A DNA stretch of 16,054 nucleotides. Origin: a virus (taxonomy: Duplodnaviria > Heunggongvirae > Uroviricota > Caudoviricetes). The notes under the pieces are model-generated. The model had not been told where the DNA came from. It saw nothing but the letters and a program-made list of their open reading frames with translations, and did no database searches. The stretch lies in the IMG/VR virus record IMGVR_UViG_2703718862_000008, positions 1-16,054 of that record. One strand, 5' to 3'. Positions within the stretch are counted from its first letter, which is position 1, and the number at the start of each line of letters is the position of its first letter. The position numbers and the translations under genes were made by a program. Positions 1 through 15,057 of the stretch are shown here, piece after piece.

Positions 1-198
1 TCACTGCGGAAGGCGTCTGTAACAACCGAACTGATAGTCTGCCAGACCCGCCATAACCAGCTGGGTCAGTATTAACTGGCAGCGTTCGCGTGAAAGGTAA
101 GTATTCTGCGCAATCTCCCCGACTGTCGCCGGGTAGGTGACGCTTAATTCATTAAACACCACTCTGGCGGTTTCTGTCATATCCTGCTGTTTCAGCAT
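1..198 (-). CDS. hypothetical small protein (65 aa), possibly winged-helix; first gene downstream of the Q-associated terminator
   Basis: Stop TGA at 1-3 and ATG at 196-198 (MLKQQDMTETARVV...). The track ORF extends to 333 but 198 is the first ATG with a sensible position. No family recognised by eye. Confidence 0.35.
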   Translation of the reverse strand: MLKQQDMTETARVVFNELSVTYPATVGEIAQNTYLSRERCQLILTQLVMAGLADYQFGCYRRLPQ

Positions 199-321
199 GT
201 CTTTTTCCCTTTTCCGGTTAACGTGACACACCAATAACTCTTGTCGAAAAAGCCAGCAACCTGAAAGAACGGTATTAATGACCACCAGCGAATTTATTGC
301 GCTGCTGTATATTACGGACAC

Positions 322-343
322 AAAAAAAACCACCTTCCGGTGG
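322..343 (-). terminator. intrinsic terminator on the - strand, about 100 nt downstream of the Q-like gene; candidate tR'-type terminator
   Basis: + strand reads caaaaaaaac caccttccggtgg at 321-343. On the - strand this is a hairpin CCACC-GGAA-GGTGG (343..330) followed by eight T (329..322). Confidence 0.55.
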
Positions 344-440
344 CTTCCTTGTGCGAAAAAACTTGCATTTCGCCTCGCGATACAGCTTTGCGAAGCTTAC
401 AGGAATTCAAGCTGTTTCTGCGTAAAAAAGCAAGCTTTTT

Positions 441-971
441 TTATCGAAATGAATCGTGCATAGGTACATAAAGCATGTGTTCAGCCACGGCTAACCAACC
501 TGCAATACGTTTCTCACATGTGCTGAAACACCATTCCGGGTGAGTACGATTTAAACATTCTGCCATTTTTCTCTTACTCATTCCCCGTCCTTCGTACCTT
601 TGCCGGAGAATATTGATTAGCCCGGGATATTCCCCAAGCACCTTACTGATAACGCGATCAATAATCAACGCCTCTGTGTCTGTACAATGTGACAACCAGC
701 TCTTCTGCTTTCCTCTTGTCATATCCCGAAAAAATGCCTCAAGTTCCGGTTTTTCCAGCCCGGATTTCTTCATTCTGCGCAAAACCTCATTAACTGCTGT
801 TTTCGTCAGCTTTTTCGAAACCAGTAACCGGTTAAACATATTTCCGGATTTACCCCCACCGATATACGACCACCGCCCCCACATCCGTAATTTCCCCTGG
901 ATCCAGACTGCTTCCAGCGTGTTCAGGCGTAAATGTTCGCCGCTTTTGCCTGTAATTTCCGGATATATCAT
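441..971 (-). CDS. late-gene antiterminator Q-like protein (176 aa)
   Basis: Lies directly downstream of rusA at the end of the early-right operon, the canonical Q position. WG.W motif (LRMWGRWSY) and a C-terminal Cys/His cluster resemble Q21/QuuD-type antiterminators as I recall them. ATG at 969-971 is 8 nt after the rusA stop; the track start at 983 is a TTG. Confidence 0.5.
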   Translation of the reverse strand: MIYPEITGKSGEHLRLNTLEAVWIQGKLRMWGRWSYIGGGKSGNMFNRLLVSKKLTKTAVNEVLRRMKKSGLEKPELEAFFRDMTRGKQKSWLSHCTDTEALIIDRVISKVLGEYPGLINILRQRYEGRGMSKRKMAECLNRTHPEWCFSTCEKRIAGWLAVAEHMLYVPMHDSFR

Positions 972-979
972 ATTTACGC

Positions 980-1339
980 TCACTCACTCTCAATTTTGTA
1001 AATCTTCACACCCAGCCGTCCACCAGATACTGGCTGACCACGTACAATATTGATTTCATCAAACTGCTCGTCATCAATGAGCACTCCCGCATGCGTCAGC
1101 GCATCCAGCGGTGCTTTCAGAATGTTGTCCAGGTCGCGACGACGCTTATCCGGTGGCTCTGCAATCACCTTTATCACCAGCCTTCCGGACAGGCTTAATT
1201 TCAGCCGCTGCTGGCGAACAATAAGCGCCACAGCCCGGCGATAACGCTTTCCCTCCTCCGAGATAAAATATGTGCTGCCACGGCGTCGCCAGTAAGTGTT
1301 CACCGTCGGCGGGTAAGGTAAAACCAAATCTATGAGCAT
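980..1339 (-). CDS. rusA: Holliday junction resolvase RusA (119 aa)
   Basis: ATG at 1337-1339. The motif PDKRRRDLDNILKAPLDALTHAGVLIDDEQ matches the RusA catalytic core (E. coli RusA has [30 protein letters not shown] in my recollection). Confidence 0.85.
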   Translation of the reverse strand: MLIDLVLPYPPTVNTYWRRRGSTYFISEEGKRYRRAVALIVRQQRLKLSLSGRLVIKVIAEPPDKRRRDLDNILKAPLDALTHAGVLIDDEQFDEINIVRGQPVSGGRLGVKIYKIESE

Positions 1340-1351
1340 CAGTCACCTCTT

Positions 1352-2401
1352 TTACCCAAGCACGCCAGTTGCAAAGGCGTGATCAAGAAAACGAAAAATT
1401 AAATCAATCTGAGAACCATGATTTTCTTCGAACGCCAGCGGATCCGCATGAAGTTCGTTGTGATGTTCCCGGCACAACGGTAGCGTGAAAATATCGTGGG
1501 CCTTTGTTCCCATCCCTCCCTGACCGTGACCAATCAGGTGATGGGGATCGTCGGCTGGCTGACCACAACACGCACACGGCTGTGTCTTCACCCAGCGCGT
1601 ATATTTCTCATTTACCCAACGGCGACGTTTAGGTCGCCTCATGAAAGATTCCGGAGACTCCGGATCAACGGTGATGCATACCACCGTCTTTTCCTGTGGT
1701 GGGTTCTGTTGCTGGCGGGCGTGAGACGGCGGCGCAATATTTTTTGTGCGCTGTTTCAGTATGCTGGTGGCGGTCTGCTCTCCCGGTATGATGTCGCTTT
1801 CGCGATACACCGAGCGGATTTTTTCCGCACGTAACCCCAGAGAACGACGTAATACTGCCTCCGGAAGCGCGTCCGCCACCTGATTGCAGACCGCCCACCA
1901 GGATAATTCAGCCAGCGACAATTCCCGCTCCTGCGTGCCATTCATTGCATGGCGTATGACGTCAATCATCCATGCTGACAGGTTTTGATGAGCAAGTTGC
2001 CCGAGTGATTCGGATGTCTGGTCACGCAGCTGGTTGTCACAGTGCCAGCACAACACCATCGAGCCAGCGCCATAACGGTGAATGACGGTTTCACTGTGGT
2101 GATAATCGCCGTGTGGCCACTGGCAGGATTTAACATGGCGCAGTAACCAGTCAGACAATGCGCCAGCGCCACCAGCAGCACGAATCACTCGTTCGTCGCT
2201 GAAAAATGGCAGTAATGATTTATCCTCCGCCAGCGGCTGGCGAACGGCAGGAACGACCCCGGACGGCAGATTACGCATGCTTTTCGGTTCCGGCTCCACC
2301 AGTACCCGGGTATTTTGGAATACCGGCATGGATTCATGGCCCGGCTTAACGATCACCAGCCCGAGTTCTGGCACAAGAACAGGTCGAAGTAATACCCGCA
2401 C
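1352..2401 (-). CDS. ydfU: YdfU-like prophage protein (family I recall as DUF968) with a C-terminal HNH/NinG-like Cys-His cluster (349 aa)
   Basis: GTG start at 2399-2401 preceded by GGAGGT with a 3-nt spacer and placed 1 nt after the upstream stop (translational coupling). C-terminus carries CACCG...HHLIGH...CREHHNELH. Length and position match the Qin ydfU slot. Confidence 0.7.
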   Translation of the reverse strand: MRVLLRPVLVPELGLVIVKPGHESMPVFQNTRVLVEPEPKSMRNLPSGVVPAVRQPLAEDKSLLPFFSDERVIRAAGGAGALSDWLLRHVKSCQWPHGDYHHSETVIHRYGAGSMVLCWHCDNQLRDQTSESLGQLAHQNLSAWMIDVIRHAMNGTQERELSLAELSWWAVCNQVADALPEAVLRRSLGLRAEKIRSVYRESDIIPGEQTATSILKQRTKNIAPPSHARQQQNPPQEKTVVCITVDPESPESFMRRPKRRRWVNEKYTRWVKTQPCACCGQPADDPHHLIGHGQGGMGTKAHDIFTLPLCREHHNELHADPLAFEENHGSQIDLIFRFLDHAFATGVLG

Positions 2402-2402
2402 G

Positions 2403-2681
2403 TTACCTCCAGATACGTTGCTGGAATGTGCGGGATGGACGCGGTGGGCGCTCGGAGTAAGGGAGCCTCACAGAGATTATCCAGTGCAGTCGGTCGAGGC
2501 TGAGGTCTTTCTGAAACTCGTATCCGCGCCTGCGGTAGCACTGAATTAACCATTCAGCTTGTTCTTCAGTACATGGGGGATGCTGGTACCAGTCAGATTT
2601 AAATGCGTGAGAGCGCCGCCCGTGCCTGCTGGCAAAGACGGCTGAATTATCAGAATTGTGTGATTTGGTATCGTGCGCCAT
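2403..2681 (-). CDS. hypothetical Arg-rich protein (92 aa from ATG 2681); occupies the rem-like position between hokD and ydfU
   Basis: ORF ends with TAA at 2403-2405, overlapped by the SD of the next gene. The track start at 2810 is GTG without an SD; the first ATG is at 2679-2681 with only a weak SD. Start is uncertain. Confidence 0.4.
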   Translation of the reverse strand: MAHDTKSHNSDNSAVFASRHGRRSHAFKSDWYQHPPCTEEQAEWLIQCYRRRGYEFQKDLSLDRLHWIISVRLPYSERPPRPSRTFQQRIWR

Positions 2682-2819
2682 CGGTTGTCTCTGCTGGCGC
2701 AGCAGGTGCCAGTTGTTCAGGCTGACGTGCGAATTGTAAACCAGAATGCCAGGAAAAAACAAAACCCGACGAAGCGGGTTAAGCGCGGGTGCGTTGAGGA
2801 TGCCTGACACATCAGAGGT

Positions 2820-2841
2820 GGCGGGAGATTTCTCCCCCGCC
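2820..2841 (-). other. GC-rich hairpin immediately 3' of hokD (GGCGGGAGA-TTT-CTCCCCCGCC); likely hok mRNA 3' structure or terminator
   Basis: Near-perfect 9-10 bp GC stem directly seen 8 nt past the hokD stop. No clean U-tract follows on the - strand. Confidence 0.4.
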
Positions 2842-2848
2842 TGGTCTC

Positions 2849-3004
2849 TTACTCCTCAGGTTCGTAGACTGTGAAGACAGCGACCTCCGTCTGGCCGGTT
2901 CGGATTCGTACCTCGCAGAGGTCTTTCCTCGTTACCAGTGCCGTCACTATGACGGTTAAACAGATGACGATAAGGGCGATTAGCATCGCCTTTTGCTGCT
3001 TCAT
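2849..3004 (-). CDS. hokD: Hok-family membrane toxin (51 aa), HokD/RelF-like
   Basis: Product MKQQKAMLIALIVICLTVIVTALVTRKDLCEVRIRTGQTEVAVFTVYEPEE has one TM helix and matches my recollection of HokD almost residue for residue. GGAG lies 9 nt upstream of the ATG at 3002-3004. An in-frame ATG 19 codons upstream (3061) gives the 70-aa track ORF. Confidence 0.8.
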   Translation of the reverse strand: MKQQKAMLIALIVICLTVIVTALVTRKDLCEVRIRTGQTEVAVFTVYEPEE

Positions 3005-3295
3005 AGCCTGCTTCTCCTTGCCTTTCGGCACGTAAGAGGCTAACCTACGTGTGTAGAGCATAGATATGGCATCAGATTAATGTTAAGCGTCTTGCCGGAC
3101 GCGCAATGTTAACTGGGGCTTTTCTCTATCTGCCTTTTGGTATTCATGCCTGAGACAGATAGCCTCAAGCACCCGCAGCAATTCTACTTAACTATCCTTT
3201 CCCCGCAAATCGTTTTTATCCCCAGCGACAAATCGAATACACCACCAGCGCCACCGCCATTGCGATCCCTACCGTTGTGAATGCCTCAGGCCAGG
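3005..3295 (-). promoter_or_regulatory. hok leader/regulatory region (expected promoter, mok-type upstream translation start, possible Sok-type antisense RNA on the + strand)
   Basis: About 290 nt between the upstream gene stop and the hok ATG. Presence of regulatory RNA is inferred from hok/sok biology; I could not place a convincing Sok promoter or terminator by eye. Confidence 0.3.
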
Positions 3296-3640
3296 TCATC
3301 GTAAAACATCCTCTGCGCTTATCAGTCCGTTTCGCTTCAGGTAGTCCATCGCCTTACCCGGCAATTTACAGTCCGGCTTCGTTTTCCTCAGTTGCCAGGT
3401 TAACTGCTTTACCAGCATGGTTAACTCGTCGACCAGACGCTGATGTCCCACTGGTTTGTATTCATGCAATTTACCGGCTGGCTCTGCTGCCAGCGATGCC
3501 AGTGCGATTTCCAGAACAGCAATATCCATCTTATATGTGCGGATGATGTCATGGTCGATTGTGCCCGGTATGCACAGTCTCTGTGCTTCAATAGTCTCCT
3601 CTGCGTGAGCTATTAACTGCTCTCTGGTAAAAGTGGTCAT
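3296..3640 (-). CDS. hypothetical protein (114 aa); N-terminal domain paralogous to the gene at 4154-4579
   Basis: ATG at 3638-3640 overlaps the upstream stop (ATGA). N-terminus [13 protein letters not shown]...[10 protein letters not shown] parallels MTELTKEQLIEEA...IALTSLEAEP. Confidence 0.6.
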
Positions 3641-4152
3641 GCCGCGCTTCCTTCTTGCTTATTAACGATTACACCGTCATATATTTCATTAAGGTGTCCC
3701 CTCAACTCCATGCGCCTTAATGCAGACAACATGTAATCGCATTCAACCTGCTTATTTCCAGTAAATGGCTTATCGTCAGGATCACCCCAACAGCAATTAC
3801 CCTTGGGCCACCCATGTACTTTCCGTACTCTTCCGTTAACAACGTGAAGTAATCCCCAGCCAGGTGGTAAATCCTCAATTGAAATAATTCCCGGCTCACT
3901 AATAAAGAATCTCCAGTCGCCCATGCCAAGAGAGGGATTTTTACGGAAACGCTTTTTTCTATCTGCCAACAAGTCAGCACGAGAACACTTCGCCTCTATC
4001 AGGCATGATGCTGAATTTCTGAATCCCATAGCATCTGGTTGTTCTCCAGTACTGGTTACAGCAACAAAGCGGTCATGAAAGCAAACCTTGAACCCGTTGC
4101 GCTTAAGGAACCTGTACGCAATCTGACAGAGTTCGCGGTGTGTTAACGCCAT
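3637..4152 (-). CDS. PD-(D/E)xK-type nuclease-like protein (171 aa)
   Basis: Motif EQPDAMGF...[20 protein letters not shown] fits a D/E-x-PD...(D/E)-x-K restriction-endonuclease-fold signature. AAGGAG lies 7 nt upstream of the ATG at 4150-4152; stop overlaps the next start. Confidence 0.55.
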
Positions 4153-4153
4153 C

Positions 4154-4579
4154 TCATTCTCCTTTGATGCGAATGTTTACAACCTGACAAACCTCTTTGA
4201 GTACCCAGTCAACAGCGTCTTTCCACGCTCCAGTCTCAACTGGCGGATTCTCACGTTTTACTTGTTCATAGAAGTGCACAGCTTTAACCAGTCCTTCAGG
4301 TACTACAGGCACTGGCGGCATGCGATACAATGGAGTAACACAACGCGAAGCCTCATATTTATCTGACGGACGCTGAAATATCTCACCGAACCCATATTTT
4401 TCAATATCTCGCAGTTCCTCGTCGTCAGTCCATGCCACCGGTTCTGCTTCCAGCGATGTCAGTGCAATTTTGAATAACTCACCCTCTACTCGTGCCACGC
4501 CTGAATTGGGATGGCATTTCGCAATCGCTATTTTTAATTTGGCTTCTTCGATTAATTGCTCTTTTGTTAATTCAGTCAT
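4154..4579 (-). CDS. hypothetical protein (141 aa); N-terminal paralog of 3296-3640, C-terminus ends IRIKGE
   Basis: ATG at 4577-4579. Shared N-terminal motif described above; C-terminal IRIKGE is encoded by an 18-nt sequence repeated at 5037-5054. Confidence 0.6.
   Translation of the reverse strand: MTELTKEQLIEEAKLKIAIAKCHPNSGVARVEGELFKIALTSLEAEPVAWTDDEELRDIEKYGFGEIFQRPSDKYEASRCVTPLYRMPPVPVVPEGLVKAVHFYEQVKRENPPVETGAWKDAVDWVLKEVCQVVNIRIKGE
4158..4175. repeat. 18-nt module-junction repeat TCTCCTTTGATGCGAATG, copy 1
   Basis: Exact repeat of 5037-5054. On the - strand it encodes IRIKGE at the end of one gene and supplies AAGGAG as the SD of the next. Confidence 0.7.
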
Positions 4580-4674
4580 TTTTCATTACCGCTCTTTCTG
4601 GCGGCCTCCTGATGTTCTGAGGGTGCAGAAATCCCTCCGGCTAAGGATTAAATTTTTAACAGTTCTAAATTTAA

Positions 4675-5031
4675 TTATTCAGTTCTGGATTTTGTCGCCC
4701 TGCGTATCCGCGCTTTCGCGTTACGCTCAATCTGAATTAGCTTTTCTATATTTTTTCGCCTTTCCCGCTCCTCCTGGCGCAAGTGCCTTACATCATCTGC
4801 CAGTCTGGTTTCTCTTTTCGCCACAGAGAGCATCCAGTCAAATGGCTCCACAACTGCACCGCAGATTTTACAGCGGACCTGACGCTCTTTTTCGTCAACC
4901 AGGACAGAGGCGTGATGACAATATGGTCTTTCCGATGGCTCATAAAGAAAATTAACCTGATTACGAGGGTCATCCTCTTTTACCGGAAATAAAACGATAT
5001 TGCTTAACTCATCCTCTGGTTTTATTTCCAT
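4675..5031 (-). CDS. hypothetical zinc-ribbon protein (118 aa)
   Basis: ATG at 5029-5031 preceded by AAAGGAGAGGAG. CHH...(17)...CKIC cluster; basic C-terminal tail. Confidence 0.5.
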   Translation of the reverse strand: MEIKPEDELSNIVLFPVKEDDPRNQVNFLYEPSERPYCHHASVLVDEKERQVRCKICGAVVEPFDWMLSVAKRETRLADDVRHLRQEERERRKNIEKLIQIERNAKARIRRATKSRTE

Positions 5032-5470
5032 GCTCCTCTCCTTTGATGCGAATGCCAGCGACGCGTAATGCGTGTTCTAGGTCAATCAGGTAAAGCCAAC
5101 TGCCATTTTCTTTAGGTATCATGACATGTCGCTCATCTGCATTTATCGGGTGTCCATATCGAAGGTCGTAGCGAGTCGGTAATTGAACTTCCCGCGCTTC
5201 CAGTTCAGCAAGACGCTTGCTCCCATCAGAGATAACGCCTTCGTAATACTCACGCTGCTCGTTGAGTTGTGATTTTGCTTCTTCCAGTCCATCCAGCAAA
5301 TCAGCGATAATATCCGCTTCCCGATGACGGATGTGACGCTTAAACGCAGCAAGAGCCGCATCACAATCCCGTTCAGCATTTGGGCTGTCCGGGATAGCCT
5401 GATACCACGCCAGCGTCGACTGATAGTTTTGTGCTGCCTCACGAAGCGCCTCATAGTTAACCTCTCTCAT
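5009..5470 (-). CDS. hypothetical protein (153 aa), C-terminus GIRIKGE
   Basis: ATG at 5468-5470 overlaps the upstream stop (ATGA). Acidic, helical-looking sequence; no family assigned. Confidence 0.55.
   Translation of the reverse strand: MREVNYEALREAAQNYQSTLAWYQAIPDSPNAERDCDAALAAFKRHIRHREADIIADLLDGLEEAKSQLNEQREYYEGVISDGSKRLAELEAREVQLPTRYDLRYGHPINADERHVMIPKENGSWLYLIDLEHALRVAGIRIKGEEHGNKTRG
5037..5054. repeat. 18-nt module-junction repeat TCTCCTTTGATGCGAATG, copy 2
   Basis: Exact repeat of 4158-4175, in the same coding and SD context. Confidence 0.7.
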
Positions 5471-5763
5471 TGAGCCACCTCCTGATAAATCACCGCATGC
5501 CCCAGTTTCTCCGCCAGTGCCAGCTCTGCCTTAGCGCCCGCTGACCGCTGCCAGCCATTCAGCATGTAAATCGCATCCACACAACGAATCATTGCCATGC
5601 AAATATCCATGTAGTGCGGCTGTGTCAGCCCGTCCGGAAGTACTGCCGGGTTTAAGACGGTATGCCCTTCCCGTTTCAGTTCCTCTTCCGCCTTGTGAAA
5701 CGCCTCACGGTTGAAATTTTCATATCCCGTCATTGGACCGGCAATATAAACTCTGACCCTCAC
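5467..5763 (-). CDS. nucleoside 2-deoxyribosyltransferase-like protein (family I recall as DUF4406), 98 aa
   Basis: Rossmann-like N-terminus VRVYIAGPMTG...NPA...GWQRSAGA typical of that fold. The start must lie upstream of YIAGPMTG, so a GTG at 5761-5763 with AGGAGG 7 nt upstream is chosen; it overlaps the upstream stop by 4 nt. Confidence 0.55.
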   Translation of the reverse strand: MRVRVYIAGPMTGYENFNREAFHKAEEELKREGHTVLNPAVLPDGLTQPHYMDICMAMIRCVDAIYMLNGWQRSAGAKAELALAEKLGHAVIYQEVAQ

Positions 5764-6152
5764 TCCATCACCTCCTGAAAGTTTCCCCGATAGAACGCCA
5801 GCACACGCTGCATAACTTCGCTCTGGCGGCACTCACGACAAATTATGTTCTGCCGTCTGTTGTAACGACGTATTTCTCCGTCAGGTAACTTTCGAATCAG
5901 TGTCGGGTCAGCAGCCTTCTCCGGTGTCTTACGCCATACGCGATACGCCTGCTCTGATGGAAATACCCCGCAACCAGAGAGCCAGACATCACCACTGGCC
6001 GCAAGCGCACCAGATAAACGACGAATAGCGGTCTTACTGACACCCGTTTTATCTGCCAGTTGTCGAAAAGTTTCTCGTCCGCTCAGGCGCACGAATTCCA
6101 CAATGCGCGCCTTCACTTCTTCCCGCTCTTCTGGTGTAAATACTTTTGCCAT
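5760..6152 (-). CDS. hypothetical HTH-containing protein (130 aa)
   Basis: ATG at 6150-6152 with GGAGG 5 nt upstream (the track start at 6167 lacks an SD). HTH-like segment TFRQLADKTGVSKTAIRRL. Confidence 0.5.
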   Translation of the reverse strand: MAKVFTPEEREEVKARIVEFVRLSGRETFRQLADKTGVSKTAIRRLSGALAASGDVWLSGCGVFPSEQAYRVWRKTPEKAADPTLIRKLPDGEIRRYNRRQNIICRECRQSEVMQRVLAFYRGNFQEVME

Positions 6153-6167
6153 AAGCGCCTCCGGCAA

Positions 6168-6938
6168 TCACTTTTCCGATACAACACGGCGGGAAGAATC
6201 AGTAATCTGTCGAACAATATCCCGGTGCTTGTTCAGCTCCCGCAGCGCGGCGCAGACTCGCTCCCACTTCTGAACATCACTTTTCGCCCTGCGCAGCGCC
6301 AGGTTTGCCCTGCGAAGGGACGGAAAAATCAGCTCATCTGCTTGCGTTTCGGTAAACGATGGCAACGGCTGCACAATGTCCGCCACAGTTTCTGTTTTAA
6401 TTTCTTCCTGTGTTGCGGCTTCCCGGACTGGTAACGCAGCACCTGCTGGCTGAGGAAAGGCCTTACCATCACTTTCCGTTACCAGCGCGGCTTTCGGCTC
6501 TGCTGGTAAATTATCGCCCGGCATGCAGTAACGAAATTTACCGTTCTGATTAACGCGTGCCAGCCGCCCCGTTGCGGTTACCACCGCCAGCGTGGAGGCA
6601 ACCTTGCGAGTACTGACGCCGAACTTACCCGCCAGTTCCTCACACGTTTTAGCACCATCCTGACCGATAAACTCAATCATCATGTCTGCGGTAACTTTTT
6701 GTTCGACCTCCCCAGTCAGCATATCCTGTGCTTCAGATTTTACTGGCCGCTCTTCGGTTACCCGGGATTCACCTTCGCCAGCCAGAAACCAGGTGTGACC
6801 AGTTTTATCAACGACGCCATTTCTTTTGAGTTCCCACAGCTCGTTGAGAACCTCTTCACGACTGATATCAAGTCGCGCGGCCAGTTCTACCGATGTGGCT
6901 TTTCCCATTGCTTTCAGTGCGTCAAATACGGTTTCCAT
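6168..6938 (-). CDS. hypothetical protein with two winged-helix-like repeats (256 aa)
   Basis: ATG at 6936-6938 with GGAGG 8 nt upstream (the track start at 6962 lacks an SD). Repeated wHTH-like segments [26 protein letters not shown] and [20 protein letters not shown]. Confidence 0.55.
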
Positions 6939-6971
6939 TAAAATTTCCTCCGACAAAATCATTTCTCAAAT

Positions 6972-7634
6972 TCAGACAAAACCAGCCGCTTTCCGGCGCT
7001 CATATTCCTGTTTCAGTAACTCAATTGGCGTTGGCCCTGGCGGGTGTTTTGGCCCTTCCAGTTGTCGTCGCACTGGCGGAACACTCATGCCGTTACCAAC
7101 ATTCTTTGCCCATTTGGTCAACAGTCGTTCTGCAAGTCGTTTCAGCTCACTTTCAGTCATCTGACGTTCAATCCCTCTGGTGCGCATCTCGAGGCAAATG
7201 TGGTACAGCACAGGCTGTGGCCACGGGTATTTATCACTCCCGTCGTATCGCCAGGATTCATTGCGCCAGCGCCGGTACTCTTCCATCACTGCATCCACCG
7301 TAAGACCAAATGGATTTGCCCCACTCTCCGAAATCAGTGCAACAAACTCAGCCAGGTCCGGGGGCCACGTTTCACCCGCCCGGCAGCGGTCCATGCACTG
7401 ACGACAGACCAGACGGATTTGCTGTTCAGTCATCGCACCAATCTGGGCAATCCAGAGCTTCGAAGGTGCGGCCCCGTTCTTCTGAGTCCAGCGGTTCGAA
7501 TACACCTCCCCCATAAGCTCCCACAGCTTCCAGGCCGTTTCCGTTGCTGATAAATCCGTTTTCACGTTCCCACTGTTCGCGTGATGCCCGGATTTCCTGA
7601 ACTGCCCGTGATGCCGTGCCACCTGATGCTGCAT
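6972..7634 (-). CDS. replication protein P-like (helicase loader), start uncertain
   Basis: C-terminal half (YPWPQPVLYHICLEMRTRGIERQMTESELKRLAERLL) resembles lambda P as I recall it (YPWKSNAHYWLVTNLYQNMRANALTDAELRRKAADEL). The full ORF overlaps the O-like gene by 209 nt; alternative ATGs are at 7514 and 7433. Confidence 0.55.
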   Translation of the reverse strand: MQHQVARHHGQFRKSGHHANSGNVKTDLSATETAWKLWELMGEVYSNRWTQKNGAAPSKLWIAQIGAMTEQQIRLVCRQCMDRCRAGETWPPDLAEFVALISESGANPFGLTVDAVMEEYRRWRNESWRYDGSDKYPWPQPVLYHICLEMRTRGIERQMTESELKRLAERLLTKWAKNVGNGMSVPPVRRQLEGPKHPPGPTPIELLKQEYERRKAAGFV

Positions 7635-8439
7635 GGCTTACCCCCTTGCTGACTGGTTTTGCCTGTGCCCTGACGTGCTGCACGTGGCGGGCAAATTTCT
7701 GCTCCCACTGAACCTGCGTGAAAACCTTCCCCTCCGCCATCCAGTAATCCCGGAATGCGGCAAGCTCTGCAGGTGTAAATTCCGGCTCAGGCAGAGCCAT
7801 ACCCCACACAGCTGCCCGTTGTCGAAAATCCGGCGACGGCTGCCAGACAGTGGTCATCGAAAATTTCCCGATCGGTTCGCTCAGGCCGTCCAGGTATTCA
7901 GGTTCGGCTGTCTGCAACGGCGCACCATGCGACTCACTGGTAGGAATACTCTCGCGTTCACGCACGTTATGTGTGGGGTTTAATTCTTTTAGATCTGTAT
8001 CTTTATTAGTTGCTTTTGTGTTTGCGTCATGTTCAAACACAACACCAACATTTGTTTGAACACCTGTTAAATCTCTCTCTTGTTTTGTTTGAACATATGC
8101 TTCCTTTCTGCTTCTTCTGGCCTGAACAGATGCTTTTCCGGCGGCTGATTTTTTGGTCAATTTTTCCCTGACTGATGCCAGATCTTCCTCAATCCGAAGA
8201 TGCACCCATTCATCGCCGTTATCGCAAAAAAACTCCCGCAAGGATGGTTCCACATCAGCCCATCGCTCGTTAGTCAGACGGGAAATTTTTGCCAGCCTGT
8301 TTTTAGGTATTGGTTTCCCTGTTTGCCAGTAATTGAACATCAGCAACAAATACGCACCGTGCTCCTCTGCGGACAAATGCATGGTGTCAGCCAGGTAATC
8401 AGCTATGTACAGTTGCATGTATGGTAATGCGGCCATAAT
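7426..8439 (-). CDS. replication initiation O-like protein: YdaU-type N-terminal domain (family I recall as DUF1376) plus DnaT-like C-terminal domain (337 aa)
   Basis: ATG at 8437-8439 with GAGG 5 nt upstream (the track start at 8490 is TTG). N-terminus MAALPYMQLYIADYLADTMHLSAEEHGAYLLLMFNYWQ; C-terminal segment FSMTTVWQPSPDF...YWMAEGKVFTQVQWEQKFARH resembles the DnaT C-terminus from memory. Confidence 0.65.
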   Translation of the reverse strand: MMAALPYMQLYIADYLADTMHLSAEEHGAYLLLMFNYWQTGKPIPKNRLAKISRLTNERWADVEPSLREFFCDNGDEWVHLRIEEDLASVREKLTKKSAAGKASVQARRSRKEAYVQTKQERDLTGVQTNVGVVFEHDANTKATNKDTDLKELNPTHNVRERESIPTSESHGAPLQTAEPEYLDGLSEPIGKFSMTTVWQPSPDFRQRAAVWGMALPEPEFTPAELAAFRDYWMAEGKVFTQVQWEQKFARHVQHVRAQAKPVSKGVSHAASGGTASRAVQEIRASREQWERENGFISNGNGLEAVGAYGGGVFEPLDSEERGRTFEALDCPDWCDD

Positions 8440-8522
8440 TGCCTCATCTTGTGACGAACCATCCTCTGGTGATATTCTGTGATTCCCCAATCAACAGAAT
8501 CAGCAGGGGTATGGCATAAATA

Positions 8523-8960
8523 TCAATGCACCACAACAGACTCGCCGGATGACCCGCCGTCGCTGAAATACGCTTTCCGGTAAACTGCCTGGACTGCATC
8601 ATCATGCGCATCAATTGCCGTGCTCAACGCTTCCTGGGCCGCCAGTAATGCACGGCGCTCAACAGTGTCAAAAATACTGAGGTGATAACGCAGTTCACGC
8701 GGAAGAACAGTCAGGATAGCTGGAATTAGTGCCTGAATTTTTTCAACAGCATCAGGCGTATCCTTTTCAAGCCAGCGAAAAATATTTTGTATGTTCAATC
8801 CAATACCCTCTGTCGTAGAGGTGTCATGCATTGGTGGATAAGTCATTTCAAGCTGAAAATATGCCGTCGCTATATCATCAGCGATTTTTTTGCGCCCTAC
8901 CCTCGGATAAAGCAGCCACGCATTCATCGCCATGCGGATGTGCTCATGCTTGATTTTCAT
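8523..8960 (-). CDS. ydaT: YdaT-like (CII-like) protein, 145 aa
   Basis: ATG at 8958-8960 overlaps the cro-like stop (ATGA). MKIKHEHI... N-terminus and the position after the Cro-like gene match the Rac ydaS-ydaT arrangement as I recall it. Confidence 0.6.
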   Translation of the reverse strand: MKIKHEHIRMAMNAWLLYPRVGRKKIADDIATAYFQLEMTYPPMHDTSTTEGIGLNIQNIFRWLEKDTPDAVEKIQALIPAILTVLPRELRYHLSIFDTVERRALLAAQEALSTAIDAHDDAVQAVYRKAYFSDGGSSGESVVVH

Positions 8961-9217
8961 GAATCAACTCCCGCCGCTGCTTGTGCGTTAGCCTGATACT
9001 CAACAGGTAAACCATCGGTTGGATTAGGGTATTTATCAGGGCGCAATTCATGCGGAGTTACTCCCCAGTCAAGCGCCTCACATGCTGGTATAACCTCCTC
9101 CGCTGGCACTCGTTTTTTAAACCACCCACTTATGGTTTGCGGTGTTTTACCAAGACGACGCCCTAATTCTGATTGGCTCATTATTGACAGGATTTTCACT
9201 TGAGTACTTTTTTGCAT
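8957..9217 (-). CDS. Cro-like HTH regulator (YdaS/DicC family), 86 aa
   Basis: ATG at 9215-9217 with GGAGGG 5 nt upstream. HTH QSELGRRLGKTPQTISGW and a conserved ELRPD segment. Divergent from the repressor gene. Confidence 0.7.
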   Translation of the reverse strand: MQKSTQVKILSIMSQSELGRRLGKTPQTISGWFKKRVPAEEVIPACEALDWGVTPHELRPDKYPNPTDGLPVEYQANAQAAAGVDS

Positions 9218-9247
9218 GTTTCCCTCCGAACTTTACGATGACACCGA

Positions 9248-9290
9248 TAATTACAAATTTAAACTTAAATTTCAACTTCTATTTGTAATG
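9248..9290. promoter_or_regulatory. OR-like operator/divergent promoter region between the Cro-like and repressor genes
   Basis: AT-rich inverted repeats AATTACAAATTTAA (9249-9262) and ATTTGTAA (9281-9288). Candidate - strand promoter: -35 TTGAAA (9275-9270), 16-nt spacer, -10 TAATTA (9253-9248). Confidence 0.5.
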
Positions 9291-9343
9291 CCACTTATCA
9301 ATTTTTTCTGTAGGATCGCGGAACTAGTTTACGAGGGGTGGTG

Positions 9344-9736
9344 ATGATCTTTGTAAAACGCCTTCAGCAGGTGTTGCAGGAATTGAATATAAACCAGTCA
9401 GAGCTGGGAAGACGTCTTGGTGTAAAACCCCAATCCGTGCAAGGTTGGTTGAAAGGCGTGATGCCAAGAATGGATAAACTGGAAAAATTAGCAGAGCTCT
9501 CACAACATCCCGTCCATTGGTTCTTTATGGAAGAAGAAACTCTCGGCGATAAAATGGCTGTATCCAGTAATGACAACCAACCGCAACTTACAGAACAACA
9601 ACGAAAAATCATATCGCTTTTAGATGAGTTACCTCAAAGCGACGCAGAGCAGATCATTCGTGATATGGAGCAAAAACGCGATTTCTATAAACGGAAACTT
9701 GAAGAGTTACTGCGGCAGAAAAACAAAACTGCCTGA
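9344..9736 (+). CDS. DicA-like prophage repressor (HTH_XRE N-terminus, helical C-terminal domain, no peptidase domain), 130 aa
   Basis: ATG at 9344 with GAGGGG 5 nt upstream (the track start at 9338 is GTG). HTH QSELGRRLGVKPQSVQGWLKG; C-terminal segment resembles DicA from memory. Confidence 0.7.
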   Translation: MIFVKRLQQVLQELNINQSELGRRLGVKPQSVQGWLKGVMPRMDKLEKLAELSQHPVHWFFMEEETLGDKMAVSSNDNQPQLTEQQRKIISLLDELPQSDAEQIIRDMEQKRDFYKRKLEELLRQKNKTA

Positions 9737-9766
9737 TGCATTCCTTTTCTGGAACGAGCATCAGGC
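9716..9766 (-). terminator. intrinsic terminator for the higBA operon, overlapping the 3' end of the convergent repressor gene
   Basis: Perfect 9-bp stem GCCTGATGC/GCATCAGGC (9731-9739 and 9758-9766) with a structured 18-nt loop. On the - strand it is followed by AGTTTTGTTTTTCTG (9730-9716). Confidence 0.45.
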
Positions 9767-9782
9767 AAATGACTAGCAGATT

Positions 9783-10142
9783 TTATAATCCAACCAGGCT
9801 TTCCAGGGGGATACCAAATTGATTATGAAGACGGCGAATCATTGGTAACGTAAGGCTTCTGGTACCATTCAACACCTCATAAACCCGATTTTTTTTCCCA
9901 ATTGCGGGTTCCAAATCTTTCACAGTCAGCCCCTGCTGTTCCATGCGAAATCTTATAGCTTCAATTGGGGATGGTGGCTCAATGGGATAATGTTTTTTTT
10001 CATATTCCTCTATTAGCAAACACATCACCTCAAAAAAATCCCCCTCAGGCGTGTCAATTTCGGGCTCATTGTCGAACATGGGTTCAACAGCACGCAACGC
10101 GGCTTCATAATCTTGCTCTGTACGAATAGGTTTGATGTTCAT
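9783..10142 (-). CDS. higA: HigA-like HTH antitoxin (119 aa)
   Basis: ATG at 10140-10142, 2 nt after the higB stop. C-terminal HTH IGKKNRVYEVLNGTRSLTLPMIRRLHNQFGIP resembles E. coli HigA (YgjM) as recalled. Toxin-first order is typical of higBA. Confidence 0.7.
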   Translation of the reverse strand: MNIKPIRTEQDYEAALRAVEPMFDNEPEIDTPEGDFFEVMCLLIEEYEKKHYPIEPPSPIEAIRFRMEQQGLTVKDLEPAIGKKNRVYEVLNGTRSLTLPMIRRLHNQFGIPLESLVGL

Positions 10143-10144
10143 GC

Positions 10145-10447
10145 TTACTCCAGTTCGATGGTATCAGCATCAATAGCATCGTATTCCTTGTGGTTTCCGA
10201 TGAATTTAACAAATACCCATCCTCGCTGATACGCAATTGCAACAATTAAACGGTAATGATTACCTTTTATGTTGAATACCACGCGCCGGTTTTTCAATAT
10301 ACTGGCCGTTCGGTATTGTACCTTTATGTCTGCTGGGCTTTTCCAGTCAGCTTTTGCCGCCTCATCCACCCATGCCCTTAGCGGTTGTTCTGCATCAGGA
10401 TTCTCCGCCCAAAAATCCCTGAGTGTTTTAACTGAGATAATCTTCAT
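10145..10447 (-). CDS. higB: HigB-family (RelE-fold) mRNA interferase toxin, 100 aa
   Basis: ATG at 10445-10447 (the track ORF extends upstream to 10492). MKIISVKTLRDF...RRVVFNIKGNHYRLIVAIAYQRGWVFVKFIGNHKEYD aligns with K-12 HigB ...HYVFNVGGNELRVVAMVFFESQKCYIREVMTHKEYD from memory. Confidence 0.75.
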   Translation of the reverse strand: MKIISVKTLRDFWAENPDAEQPLRAWVDEAAKADWKSPADIKVQYRTASILKNRRVVFNIKGNHYRLIVAIAYQRGWVFVKFIGNHKEYDAIDADTIELE

Positions 10448-10453
10448 AACTGT

Positions 10454-10482
10454 ATAGTAGTCCCATTTTGGGACTGATGCAA
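10454..10482 (-). promoter_or_regulatory. candidate higBA promoter with operator palindrome in the spacer
   Basis: - strand: -35 TTGCAT (10482-10477), 17-nt spacer containing the palindrome AGTCCCAAAATGGGACT (10475-10459), -10 TACTAT (10459-10454). The ATG is 6 nt downstream, implying a near-leaderless mRNA. Confidence 0.4.
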
Positions 10483-10490
10483 CAGCTCGC

Positions 10491-10544
10491 AATTACAAAT
10501 TTAATAATAAACATGTTGACCAGTTAAATTTTAATTTGTAAATT
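10491..10544 (+). promoter_or_regulatory. OL-like operator and early-left promoter
   Basis: AATTACAAATTTAA (10491-10504) and ATTTGTAA (10534-10541) bracket -35 TTGACC (10516-10521), 17-nt spacer, -10 TAAATT (10539-10544) on the + strand. Confidence 0.45.
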
Positions 10545-10723
10545 GTATCCATAAACCCACCCCGCCCCACAGAACGCAGGGCAATACTTCGAGTTACCCG
10601 GCAGTGGTCAGGGGTTAAGTAGCCAGCCCGAGGCGTAAGAACATGACGGCAGGGTTCAACTTTAATAACTATGCAGCAGGTTTTTGTTCCGCTCCCCCGG
10701 CGTTAAGGGGAAATGAGGTCAGC

Positions 10724-10876
10724 ATGGATACTATCGAGCTTGGCAACAGCGAATCTCTGGTATGCGGCGTGTTTCCCAACCAGGACGGCACGTTTACCGC
10801 GATGACGTATACCAGAAGCAAAACGTTTAAAACTGAAGCTGGCGCGCGTCGCTGGTTAGCCAGAAACACTTACTGA
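10724..10876 (+). CDS. ydfA: YdfA/YdaF-like small protein (family I recall as DUF1391), 50 aa
   Basis: ATG at 10724 with GAGG upstream. MDTIELGNSESLVCGVFPNQDGTFTAMTYTRSKTFKTEAGARRWLARNTY. First gene of the + strand operon, as ydfA follows dicA in Qin. An alternative start at 10643 gives 77 aa. Confidence 0.6.
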   Translation: MDTIELGNSESLVCGVFPNQDGTFTAMTYTRSKTFKTEAGARRWLARNTY

Positions 10877-10887
10877 TGAGGTTGACG

Positions 10888-11262
10888 ATGGAATTTAAAG
10901 ATTTACCAGTACCATTCCAGGAAATGGCATCGAATGTGGTTCGCTCTCAACTGGCGACTCTTGACCTGAGTACCGTAGAAAAAGAAACAATCGACAATAT
11001 ATCCGGTAACGTACGCCGAGCCTTTATCGGGCTGTACGAAGAGAAGCAGCTCTCTGATAACCAGGATTTACATGAAAAATACTTTCTGGAATTAATGGAC
11101 ATCATTAATAAAGGATTTGGCTTGTTAATGAAAAAGAAAGGGATTCGAATAGCTCCCCTTGAAAATCATTTTACAGCAAGCAGTATTAATTCCTGTGATT
11201 TAAAGCATCACACATCCGATGGGAAAGTTGAATCAAACAACAAAATATCAATTAATCATTAA
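10888..11262 (+). CDS. hypothetical protein (124 aa), AT-rich 3' half
   Basis: ATG at 10888 with GAGGT 5 nt upstream (the track start at 10876 overlaps the upstream stop). No recognisable family. Confidence 0.5.
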   Translation: MEFKDLPVPFQEMASNVVRSQLATLDLSTVEKETIDNISGNVRRAFIGLYEEKQLSDNQDLHEKYFLELMDIINKGFGLLMKKKGIRIAPLENHFTASSINSCDLKHHTSDGKVESNNKISINH

Positions 11263-11566
11263 TTTATTCACAGGTGAGGTAGAGTGCGTGCGCCGGACAC
11301 GGATAAGAATCCGGCACTGACAGTTAACTGAAAAGGATATATCCCTGAAAAGTCAGGGCATAACACGAAAGCGCCCGGCGAAGTTAGTCTCTCTGTATAG
11401 GTCGTCGTTAAATTTTCGTCGACCGTGCGCTTCCGGTTGTGGCACTCCGCGAAATGGCGCGGAGGTAAGTATGGCGGGGTTATTCCTTCCCCGTTGAGGA
11501 CACCGGGTTGTCAGGTTGACCATACGCTTAAGTGACAACCCAGCTGCAACGCCCTCTGTTATCAAT

Positions 11567-11624
11567 TTTCTGGTGACGTTTGGCGGTATCAGTTTTACTC
11601 CGTGACTGCTCTGCCACCCTTTTT
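11567..11624 (+). ncRNA. dicF: DicF small regulatory RNA (about 53 nt mature) plus U-tail
   Basis: tttctggtgacgtttggcggtatcagttttactccgtgactgctctgccaccc followed by ttttt matches the DicF sequence as I remember it. It sits immediately upstream of dicB as in Qin. Confidence 0.8.
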
Positions 11625-11628
11625 AAAG

Positions 11629-11789
11629 TGAATTTTGTGATGCGGTGAATGCGGCTATGCGCACGCGGAACAGTTAAAACCGTAAAGTGGTCTTTTACGG
11701 GGCGTAACGGGCATCCTTCTGTATTCCGGCGTTAATTGTTAACTGGTTAACGTCACCTGGAGGCACCAGGCACCGCATCACAAAATTCA
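11629..11789 (+). repeat. 19-bp perfect inverted repeat (TGAATTTTGTGATGCGGTG at 11629-11647; CACCGCATCACAAAATTCA at 11771-11789) enclosing a 123-nt structured segment; candidate RNase III processing stem of the dicF-dicB transcript
   Basis: The inverted repeat is read directly from the sequence. An inner hairpin CCGTAAA...TTTACGG lies near 11680-11700. Confidence 0.6.
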
Positions 11790-11806
11790 TTGTTGAGGAC
11801 GCGATA

Positions 11807-11995
11807 ATGGAAACGTTATTACCAAACGTTAATACGTCTGAAGGTTGTTTTGATATTGGTGTTCTGCTCAGTAACCGGGAGTTTACGGAAGATGCCATTA
11901 AGATGAGAAAATATGAACCTTATCTTCTCAATGATAATTCCATACTTTCCAGAATTGCCCTTCTTGAACTTGGTATTATCGGAGAACAGCAGTGA
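11807..11995 (+). CDS. dicB: cell-division inhibitor DicB (62 aa)
   Basis: METLLPNVNTSEGCFDIGVLLSN... matches the DicB N-terminus as recalled (MKTLLPNVNTSEGCFEIGV...). GAGG lies 8 nt upstream of the ATG. Confidence 0.8.
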   Translation: METLLPNVNTSEGCFDIGVLLSNREFTEDAIKMRKYEPYLLNDNSILSRIALLELGIIGEQQ

Positions 11996-12180
11996 CTTCA
12001 GCATTTGCACTGGTGATGACCGTTTTTCTTATAACGGGTGAGCCACAAAATGTGATTACCGGAATTTATGACAGTAAGTCATCCTGCATTCAGGTAAGGG
12101 ACGAACAAAAAATCCCCGGTGAATGCCTCCCGTTAAAAAAAGTATCGCTGAACCTGAATAACGAAATACCGGCTGGATAA
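11992..12180 (+). CDS. ydfD: YdfD-like small hydrophobic protein (62 aa)
   Basis: GTG at 11992 overlaps the dicB stop (GTGA). Hydrophobic N-terminus FALVMTVFLITG. Position downstream of dicB matches the Qin ydfD slot. Confidence 0.5.
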   Translation: MTSAFALVMTVFLITGEPQNVITGIYDSKSSCIQVRDEQKIPGECLPLKKVSLNLNNEIPAG

Positions 12181-12275
12181 CCCGCCAGCCATATTAACGC
12201 CATACCAACGGATTAAAAATGCCAGCAATGGCAGGGATTCGTTCACCCTGAAATCTGTAATGAGGTTAAAACAAA

Positions 12276-14747: not shown

Positions 14748-14814
14748 TGTTCAACCCATATCGCCGCCCACCAGCTATAGTGGCGGCGGTCATGCTGTAA
14801 AGGCACGTGACCAC

Positions 14815-15057
14815 ATGTACGAATTAACTCTATCTCCAGCAGAGATTAAAGAGATCACGAAATACGAGCGATACACAAAACAGCAACACCAGTTAAGACT
14901 GCACGGCATCCCATTTGTAATCGGTCCTAAAAACGAACCAATAGTTCTACGCAGGGATATTCCACACGGACTGACAACGATGCCAAAAACATCTGAACTG
15001 GTTTCTGCTGAACCCGATTTTGAGGCACTGAACAATGGGAAGACCAAGAAAAAATAA
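14815..15057 (+). CDS. putative excisionase / small DNA-binding protein (80 aa)
   Basis: Immediately upstream of int and overlapping its start by 23 nt, the typical xis position. Not similar to lambda Xis by eye; the SD is weak. Confidence 0.4.
   Translation: MYELTLSPAEIKEITKYERYTKQQHQLRLHGIPFVIGPKNEPIVLRRDIPHGLTTMPKTSELVSAEPDFEALNNGKTKKK

Follow-up and report, generated by a model that had tools for sequence, protein, structure and literature searches.

A widespread predicted PD-(D/E)xK nuclease gene and its Eaa-type neighbours in the accessory region of an Escherichia coli lambdoid prophage

The three-gene block and its predicted nuclease

The stretch of DNA analysed here (hereafter the window; 16,054 nt, positions 1 to 16,054 of the IMG/VR virus record IMGVR_UViG_2703718862_000008) is an E. 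coli lambdoid prophage, as identified by the presence of an integrase, a cI/Cro-like pair, O/P-like replication genes, DUF968, RusA and Q. On its minus strand it carries a block of three closely packed open reading frames (ORFs), here called genes A, B and C. A preliminary description made from the sequence had read this block as a self-contained cassette, in which a nuclease is flanked by two proteins with paralogous N-terminal domains that possibly serve as its specificity or regulatory partners. The three ORFs and their coordinates proved correct, and the nuclease and homology calls stood up to analysis, while the reading as a self-contained cassette did not: B behaves as a module in its own right, each of the three genes occurs with other partners, and the block is best read as a mosaic patch within the nin-type accessory region rather than a dedicated three-component system. 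The block contains the following features, in window positions:

4154-4579, minus strand: gene A, 141 aa, Eaa-family modular protein (ORF)
3637-4152, minus strand: gene B, 171 aa, predicted PD-(D/E)xK nuclease (ORF)
4033-4035, 3994-3996 and 3988-3990, minus strand: predicted catalytic residues D40, E53 and K55 of B
3296-3640, minus strand: gene C, 114 aa, N-terminal module plus tail (ORF)
3216-3299, minus strand: small ORF, 27 aa, hydrophobic, its ATG overlapping the stop codon of C (ATGA)
4580-4674, upstream of A: AT-rich intergenic gap, 95 nt

Genes B and C are joined by a true ATGA overlap, whereas the stop codon of A and the start codon of B are separated by a 1-nt spacer (TGA-G-ATG), so that the proposed coupling of all three genes by ATGA overlaps holds for one of the two junctions. 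The 27-aa ORF, a fourth member that had been overlooked, is co-conserved with the C module (the match to that module extends to position 3215), and its counterpart is annotated in phage vB_EcoS-689R5. The 95-nt gap upstream of A exists as described, but it does not mark a cassette boundary, because related prophages retain it at 87-88% identity in front of another gene, and because no promoter-like or terminator-like site was found within it. RNA folding of the gap was not unusual (z = -0.8), and an Rfam scan of the window matched only sok and DicF, both at other places in the window.

The assignment of B to the PD-(D/E)xK nucleases, made originally from a motif, was borne out by residue conservation and by structure prediction. 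D40 was invariant in alignments of 26 and of 61 homologues; E53 and K55 were invariant in the former and at least 90% conserved in the latter, more diverse set. R58, D60, D64, K67, R70 and a GxGDWRF motif were also invariant among the 26. An AlphaFold model of B (predicted local distance difference test, pLDDT, 72; predicted template modelling score, pTM, 0.70) contains the alpha-beta-beta-beta-alpha-beta core, with D40 preceding the strand at residues 41-45, and E53 and K55 at the end of the strand at residues 48-54. The conserved aspartate on strand 2 and the (D/E)xK on strand 3 thus take the canonical positions of the superfamily, and the motif maps onto its active site in the model.

On its own, B gave no significant match in Pfam, NCBIfam or PADLOC, or with phmmer against the PDB, and it belongs to phrog_9263/631, both annotated as function unknown. 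A profile of the diverse B family matched PDB entry 3dnx (E 2.8e-4) over 100 positions, with D...ExK-SR-DF-AD-K aligned. This entry is the structure representing DUF1052/PF06319 in a census of the PD-(D/E)xK superfamily (PMC3424549). In a Foldseek search of the BFVD viral models, B matched phage proteins named 'MmcB-like DNA repair protein' (E 4e-6 to 1e-3), and both the closest structure and the significant profile similarity led to the solved member of DUF1052/PF06319. We take PF06319 to be the family that now carries the name 'MmcB-like'. Caulobacter MmcB is described as a PD-(D/E)XK endonuclease of crosslink repair that protects against crosslinkers (PMC9578287). Hjc came next after 3dnx in the profile search, at an E of 0.13-0.4, which is below significance; the Pfam Hjc model was weakly matched by 10 of the 26 homologues, and B itself had no significant match to the Hjc-type resolvase model (PF01870) or structures.

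On these profile and model comparisons, we assign B to an unnamed large PD-(D/E)xK family (3178 cluster representatives at E <= 1e-3) whose sister group is the DUF1052/MmcB-like proteins and which is close to Hjc-type resolvases, and we predict it to be a metal-dependent DNA endonuclease. We describe it as a sister family rather than as PF06319 itself because the PF06319 model recognizes none of the 36 members scanned, despite the structure and profile matches. Compared with DUF1052/MmcB-like proteins (PF06319, 3dnx SPO1766, Caulobacter MmcB), B carries an additional conserved helix region at its C-terminus (KPF..NK..E..RR) and the GxGDWRF motif, and it is phage-borne in gammaproteobacteria, whereas MmcB is chromosomal and SOS-regulated in alphaproteobacteria. 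As for archaeal Hjc/AHJR-like enzymes, their matches to B are all below significance and the window already has RusA; junction resolution by B would be conjectural. Literature searches on phage MmcB-like proteins, and others on Eaa/DUF551 function, returned nothing useful.

Modular flanking genes and the unsplit allele

The similarity between A and C resides in an N-terminal module (N-module), which recurs in other genes. The modules and repeats referred to below are:

4439-4579, minus strand: N-module of A, residues 1-47, predicted two-helix hairpin (helices at residues 6-22 and 27-44)
3479-3640, minus strand: N-module of C, residues 1-54, 34% identical to that of A
4440-4468, minus strand: upstream copy of a 29-nt block, ATTGCACTGACATCGCTGGAAGCAGAACC, encoding IALTSLEAEP
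3480-3508, minus strand: downstream copy of the 29-nt block, ATCGCACTGGCATCGCTGGCAGCAGAGCC
Gene A module map, from an alignment of homologues: N-module, residues 1-47; variable segment, residues 48-88; conserved module 3 (PEGLVKAVHFYEQVKRENPPVETGAWKDAVDWVLKEVC); IRIKGE tail
3394-4192, minus strand: segment of ~800 nt comprising the KGE tail and stop codon of A, all of B, and the N-module and linker of C

The N-termini of A and C are 34% identical over 56 residues (BLASTP, E 6e-5), and their Smith-Waterman score of 57 compares with 26.9 +/- 4.5 in 5000 shuffles (z = 6.7; the score was reached by 1 of the 5000). The proposed paralogy therefore survives statistical alignment, with modest support, over a module of ~47-54 residues rather than the ~60 first given. 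Two blocks, MTxxTxEQLI and IALxSLxAEP, account for most of the similarity, and both N-termini (residues 1-55) match the same PHROG profiles (phrog_660, 5117, 60 and 3323). The second block is in addition a 29-nt direct repeat (2 matches, 0 expected by chance), both copies of which align to a single site in a one-gene version carried by phage 673R7. A local tandem duplication as the source of the two N-modules was ruled out, since the two share only 34% identity, and near-identical counterparts of each occur as N-modules in other genes elsewhere. In a Foldseek search, the N-module hairpin of A superposed on the phage anti-activator Aqs1 (PDB 6v7u; probability 0.99, TM 0.68 over 46 residues, E 0.64), which is probably generic hairpin similarity between the model and that structure.

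The 1510 homologues of A include proteins named 'protein Eaa', 'DUF551 domain-containing protein' and 'ead/Ea22-like'. Their alignment resolves four modules: the N-module, a hypervariable segment, conserved module 3 (PEGLVKAVRFYEQVKRENPPVETGAWKDAVDWVLKEAC) and one of several alternative tails, namely NIGIKGE-stop, the P22 Eaa tail, DUF551 or the tail of C. A covers positions 3-143 of phrog_660, and positions 146-193 of the same profile are matched by the tail of C. The layout of C is correspondingly simple, with an N-module (residues 1-54; its N-terminus matches phrog_5117, 60 and 3323), a short linker and a conserved tail at residues ~66-114; its N-module was found at 98% identity on DUF551 proteins, and its tail on A-like bodies. 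An AlphaFold2 model of A (pLDDT 72, pTM 0.43) consists of a helical hairpin, a small alpha/beta region and a second helical hairpin; the N-module has a pLDDT of ~80 within a chain of low overall confidence, and a fold search with the model gave no significant PDB match, only generic helical hairpins.

Both A and C begin with the MTxxTKEQL...IALASLEAEP module found at the N-terminus of Eaa-type PHROG proteins, and by sequence we assign them to the modular phage proteins of the Eaa/Ea22 family. Many Eaa/DUF551-type proteins begin with this predicted two-helix module and continue into differing C-terminal modules, and the modular, highly shuffled architecture is common to the Ead/Ea22, Eaa (P22 EaA) and DUF551 families. 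Neither protein matched the Pfam Ead_Ea22 model (PF13935) at E values up to 0.1. The C-terminus of A is the '+GE' tripeptide that all Ea22 proteins reportedly share (PMC7093339). Unlike Ea22, A and C have neither the N-terminal IDYQALREAAEKA motif nor a long coiled coil, and the pro-lysogenic phenotype of lambda Ea22 belongs to a protein to which these Eaa-type products are likened here by sequence.

In loci of related prophages (L061-L064), a single gene occupies the syntenic site and B is missing from it, the gene order being DUF977, DUF4406, Ea22-like, the single gene, hok, DUF968 and RusA. Proteins of this kind (P0328 and P0338, 187-193 aa; 187 aa in L061) align as the body of A followed by the tail of C, and phage 673R7 carries another single-gene version. 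Comparison by blastn aligned L061 2499-2870 with window 4581-4192 at 76% identity and L061 2966-3598 with window 3394-2762 at 92%, and the ~800-nt segment in between takes the place of 95 nt of unrelated sequence in L061. Relative to the unsplit alleles, the nuclease-bearing segment made two genes from one Eaa-type gene, and C, the downstream fragment, thereby has its own start codon and a second copy of the N-module.

The three genes reassort independently

The points of exchange between these genes fall on short conserved sequences that run across a stop codon and the following start codon and that recur between different gene pairs. Two of these bound the B module:

4153-4175, minus strand: upstream junction of the B module, ATTCGCATCAAAGGAGAATGAG, encoding the IRIKGE-stop of A and holding the Shine-Dalgarno sequence of B (AAGGAG)
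3619-3657, minus strand: downstream junction, with the last codons of B and the Shine-Dalgarno sequence of C (GAAGGA), the ATGA overlap and the first 7 codons of C

At the upstream junction, ATTCGCATCAAAGGAGA stands both at 4158-4174, before B, and at 5037-5053, before a Zn-ribbon gene farther upstream, and it matches the corresponding junction in the phage-plasmid P7. The sequence AAAGGAGA(A/G) supplies the codons for the terminal K-G-E of the upstream protein and at the same time the Shine-Dalgarno sequence of the following gene. These codons lie 7-8 nt before the next start codon, both for B and for the Zn-ribbon gene, and the same arrangement was seen in ~12 enterobacterial loci. The '+GE' tripeptide of Ea22 proteins has been listed as being of unknown significance (PMC7093339); the junctions offer a plain reading of it, in which its codons are the Shine-Dalgarno sequence of the next gene.

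The downstream junction is shared between modules, the B module ending at 3619 and the C module beginning at 3657. In phage ArgO145 (L038 2139-2845), an HNH endonuclease gene occupies the exact position of B before a 92%-identical C gene. The HNH protein is unrelated to B, and both end in QEG(S/A)(A/T)A (QEGSAA in B, QEGATA in the HNH protein), since those codons hold the ribosome-binding site of C. Gene-boundary sequences of this general kind were reportedly described for lambdoid phages in the comparative papers of the HK620/HK97 era. Compared with such mosaic linkers, those found here are translated in two genes (the KGE tail and MTxxTKE) and carry a Shine-Dalgarno sequence besides.

Of 5426 complete E. 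coli genomes, 910 carry B at 95-99% DNA identity, with 1049 places on chromosomes and 250 on plasmids. Its module corresponds to window 3619-4175 (557 bp), with sharp ends at both positions, and is 95-96% identical in Shiga toxin (Stx) 2a-converting phages, Shigella phage Ss-VASD and P7, the Stx-phage/P7 match (95.5%) having its left end at 4175. In EC.W1-9, the match to the module is 93.7% and extends to 4316. In all these elements the flanking genes differ from those of the window and lie in another operon (the exo-xis/ea region or the P7 hea operon).

Neighbours of B were compared across 33 species-representative genomes, with ORFs called in this analysis. Among Enterobacterales, the upstream neighbour matched Pfam Ead_Ea22 in 11 of 27 cases and the downstream neighbour matched phrog_60 (the N-module) in 11 of 22. 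The upstream neighbour commonly has an Ead_Ea22 N-terminus and so differs in kind from A, which indicates that flanking by two paralogous N-modules is peculiar to the present lineage. In Shewanella, Alteromonas, Halomonadaceae, Solimonas, a Rhodobiaceae metagenome-assembled genome and Flavobacterium, the neighbours of B include NinB, RusA, methyltransferases, Zn-finger proteins and a conjugation ATPase. C is just as free of its present company: its module begins at window 3657 in three phages irrespective of the preceding gene, which is the HNH gene in ArgO145 and a small EaA fragment in 689R5 and PhiR49_2. The complete A/B/C arrangement of the window is present in 18 E. coli genomes only.

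No conserved co-occurrence of A, B and C across taxa was therefore found, each gene occurring with other partners, and none of the three belongs to a family in the PADLOC defence models. Together with the unrelated neighbours outside Enterobacterales and with a block that no promoter or terminator delimits, this independent reassortment speaks against the self-contained trio of the preliminary description, in which A and C would be specificity or regulatory partners.

Among 20 E. coli loci carrying exact A or C (L041-L060), the DNA of B is intact in 19, and the gene was not called in 13 of the 20. In one further locus (L004; NZ_CP180607.1), the Prokaryotic Genome Annotation Pipeline (PGAP) flags B as 'frameshifted' though its DNA is identical to the window. 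Pseudogenization of B, which the missing calls and the frameshift flag might suggest, was ruled out by the intact DNA; the pattern is an annotation artefact and likely a systematic annotation gap for this gene.

Within the early rightward operon, the block sits in the nin-type accessory stretch, with the replication genes on one side and RusA/Q on the other. Positions 2800-5500 of the window are 99.4% identical to E. coli chromosomes. On the minus strand, upstream of the trio, lie Cro/YdaS-like, O/P-like replication, DUF1627, DUF977 and DUF4406 genes, and the order after A, B and C is the 27-aa ORF, hok/sok, DUF968, RusA and antiterminator Q. Other features of the window are:

980-1339: RusA gene
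2849-3174, minus strand: hok/sok type I toxin-antitoxin locus (Hok/Gef Pfam, E 6e-22; sok RNA, Rfam 109 bits)
4675-5031, minus strand: Zn-ribbon gene (118 aa; phrog_1621; weak TFIIB-ribbon and Lar-like matches)
5009-5470, minus strand: Ead/Ea22-like gene (Pfam Ead_Ea22, PF13935, match at E 1.3e-11)
9338-9736, plus strand: cI-like repressor
9783-10492, minus strand: HigB toxin and helix-turn-helix (HTH) antitoxin pair (HigB Pfam, E 2e-32)
11568-11619, plus strand: DicF small RNA (Rfam 70 bits)
12276-14747, plus strand: acidic protein of 823 aa (Rv2179c-like 3'-5' exoribonuclease domain, E 8e-67)
15035-16054, plus strand: integrase

The Zn-ribbon gene overlaps the end of the Ea22-like gene, has the same IRIKGE junction as B, and is replaced in syntenic prophages by a gene for a DUF4014 membrane protein. 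The hok/sok locus lies directly downstream of the block. Elsewhere in the window, the HigB/HTH pair adjoins the cI-like repressor gene within the immunity region of the prophage, and the DicF RNA, a dicF-type cell-division inhibitor RNA, is sited in the leftward early operon. In the 823-aa protein, the recognizable domain is confined to the last 180 residues; lambda has exo/bet-type genes at that position.

Origin of the block and role of the nuclease

We consider it fairly probable that B is an active, autonomous MmcB/Hjc-like phage nuclease, probably acting on branched or damaged DNA, and that A and C are shuffled Eaa-type genes that happen to flank it. This reading is built on the gene anatomy, the fold and active-site conservation, the module boundaries, the unsplit allele and the independent reassortment, all of which the sequence comparisons and models show. 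The block would be transcribed by read-through from the early rightward operon, and it would be rearranged by homologous recombination at the conserved boundary sequences (4153-4175, 3619-3657 and the 29-nt block). Through such linkers, an upstream gene of any kind could be joined to whatever gene follows, with translational coupling kept by the ribosome-binding sites that the linkers carry. The Shine-Dalgarno sequences within them would account for the tight spacing of the genes, which does not imply a functional partnership; A and C would have no need of B. As to its role, B would cut branched or damaged DNA when the phage replicates, recombines or undergoes repair, as suggested by the analogy with MmcB and Hjc and by the company of NinB, RusA and DUF968 genes.

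Several observations count against this reading. The activity and substrate of B are predictions by analogy; its structural model is of medium confidence, the C-terminal 20 residues falling below a pLDDT of 50; and the PF06319 Pfam model was without a match to B, to its 26 homologues (at E up to 10) and to 10 distant members, which makes the functional analogy to MmcB, the sole functional anchor, remote. Both alleles carry private sequence and the left flank of the unsplit allele is only 76% identical, so that either insertion or replacement may have produced the split. The recurrence of Ea22-like genes upstream and N-module genes downstream of enterobacterial B makes a functional tie possible. 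Finally, five Salmonella enterica proteins (P0094, P0096, P0097, P0103 and P0105) are in-frame fusions of an Ea22-like protein with B; found in several clusters and contigs, they are probably not sequencing errors. In these fusions, a short Ea22-like N-terminus (DKQALREAAEKV... followed by an HLQ/NRQ low-complexity run) is joined to a complete B domain that has no start codon of its own.

The most interesting alternative, although we judge it unlikely, is that B is a selfish, free-standing homing-type endonuclease that cuts Eaa/Ea22 arrays lacking B and is copied into them by repair at the conserved junctions. Its appeal, which does not in our view lift it above the improbable, is that it would account both for the spread of B and for the split Eaa gene. 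The same 557-bp module recurs at 95-99% identity in unrelated replicons and operons (lambdoid ea, nin region and P1/P7-like plasmids) with its ends at gene boundaries, filled and unsplit alleles exist at a syntenic site, the HNH gene of ArgO145 occupies the same junction before C, and the conserved catalytic residues suggest that the enzyme has been kept active. Nuclease genes at recombination boundaries have been described (PMC10448857), as has a gene split by a mobile endonuclease: mobE, in nrdA of Aeromonas phage Aeh1, likewise separates two genes that exist elsewhere as one, and its flanking fragments also bear extra terminal sequences from the intruding segment (PMC3045599). B differs from mobE, however, in being neither GIY-YIG nor HNH, and for B self-driven mobility would be a conjecture; the gene split here is a non-essential accessory gene, unlike nrdA, and the sequence added to it is a complete pre-existing N-module rather than a novel tail.

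More generally, B is not a member of the known homing nuclease families (LAGLIDADG, GIY-YIG, HNH, His-Cys and PD-(D/E)xK of the I-Ssp6803I type), its closest relatives are repair- or resolvase-like (MmcB-like, Hjc), and its model has no recognizable DNA-binding or target-recognition extension beyond the minimal nuclease core. Nor do the alleles show a clean insertion, given flanks of 76% and 92% identity and 95 nt of replaced, unrelated sequence. Non-nuclease genes (the Zn-ribbon gene and the EaA fragment) stand at the same junctions, for which ordinary linker-mediated recombination is sufficient, and a gene that is intact in 19 of 20 sampled E. coli loci gives no sign of a cycle of gain and decay.

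That the trio is nonetheless a functional unit, in which the nuclease works with paralogous partners in specificity or regulation, toxin-immunity, defence or anti-defence, seems to us quite improbable. The block is tightly coupled (the 1-nt spacer and the ATGA overlap) and well conserved as a unit in this prophage lineage, exact A and C proteins co-occurring on hundreds of contigs with intact B, and the recurring Ea22-like and N-module neighbours in Enterobacterales and the Salmonella fusions point in the same direction. Yet B does without such neighbours in Shewanella, Halomonadaceae, Alteromonas, Flavobacterium and others, C has other upstream partners, the body of A occurs fused to the tail of C where B is missing, and the usual upstream neighbour, with its Ead_Ea22 N-terminus, differs in kind from A. 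To this are added the lack of PADLOC matches and of a promoter or terminator bounding the block.

We give equally little credence to the possibility that a split Eaa-type protein persists as two halves, A and C, which reassemble through their N-terminal hairpins and retain the function of the unsplit form. The unsplit allele does consist of the A body and the C tail, and both fragments bear the predicted two-helix N-module; lambda Ea22 is reported to be tetrameric and its isolated C-terminal domain dimeric (PMC10834534), and a split NrdA is assembled by tails that derive from a mobile-element insertion (PMC3045599). The two N-modules, however, share only 34% identity, and C persists beside no A-like gene in phages such as ArgO145 and PhiR49_2, which suggests that its tail works, or persists, without the A body; an interaction between A and C would be a proposal by analogy. 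A combined version, in which B is the founder of a group of small PD-(D/E)xK mobile endonucleases that spread among temperate enterobacterial phages and phage-plasmids by cutting Eaa/Ea22 arrays, and in which the N-module brought along serves as both start codon and dimerization handle, so that A and C reassemble in a 'self-healing' split, strikes us as no more probable than the two preceding proposals.

With the homing, partnership and reassembly proposals set aside as unlikely, the block is best described as a product of lambdoid mosaicism around a widespread uncharacterized nuclease gene, and not as a new kind of system. A predicted fold, active site and nearest family can now be assigned to a protein encoded in ~1/6 of complete E. 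coli genomes, whose carriers include Stx2a phages and P1/P7-like plasmids and whose gene RefSeq often leaves uncalled or marks as 'frameshifted' despite intact DNA. The locus also provides a concrete, datable example of the rebuilding of a lambdoid accessory region, in which one exchange made two genes around a nuclease gene, and in which the short sequences at the exchange points combine the roles of protein terminus, ribosome-binding site and recombination linker.

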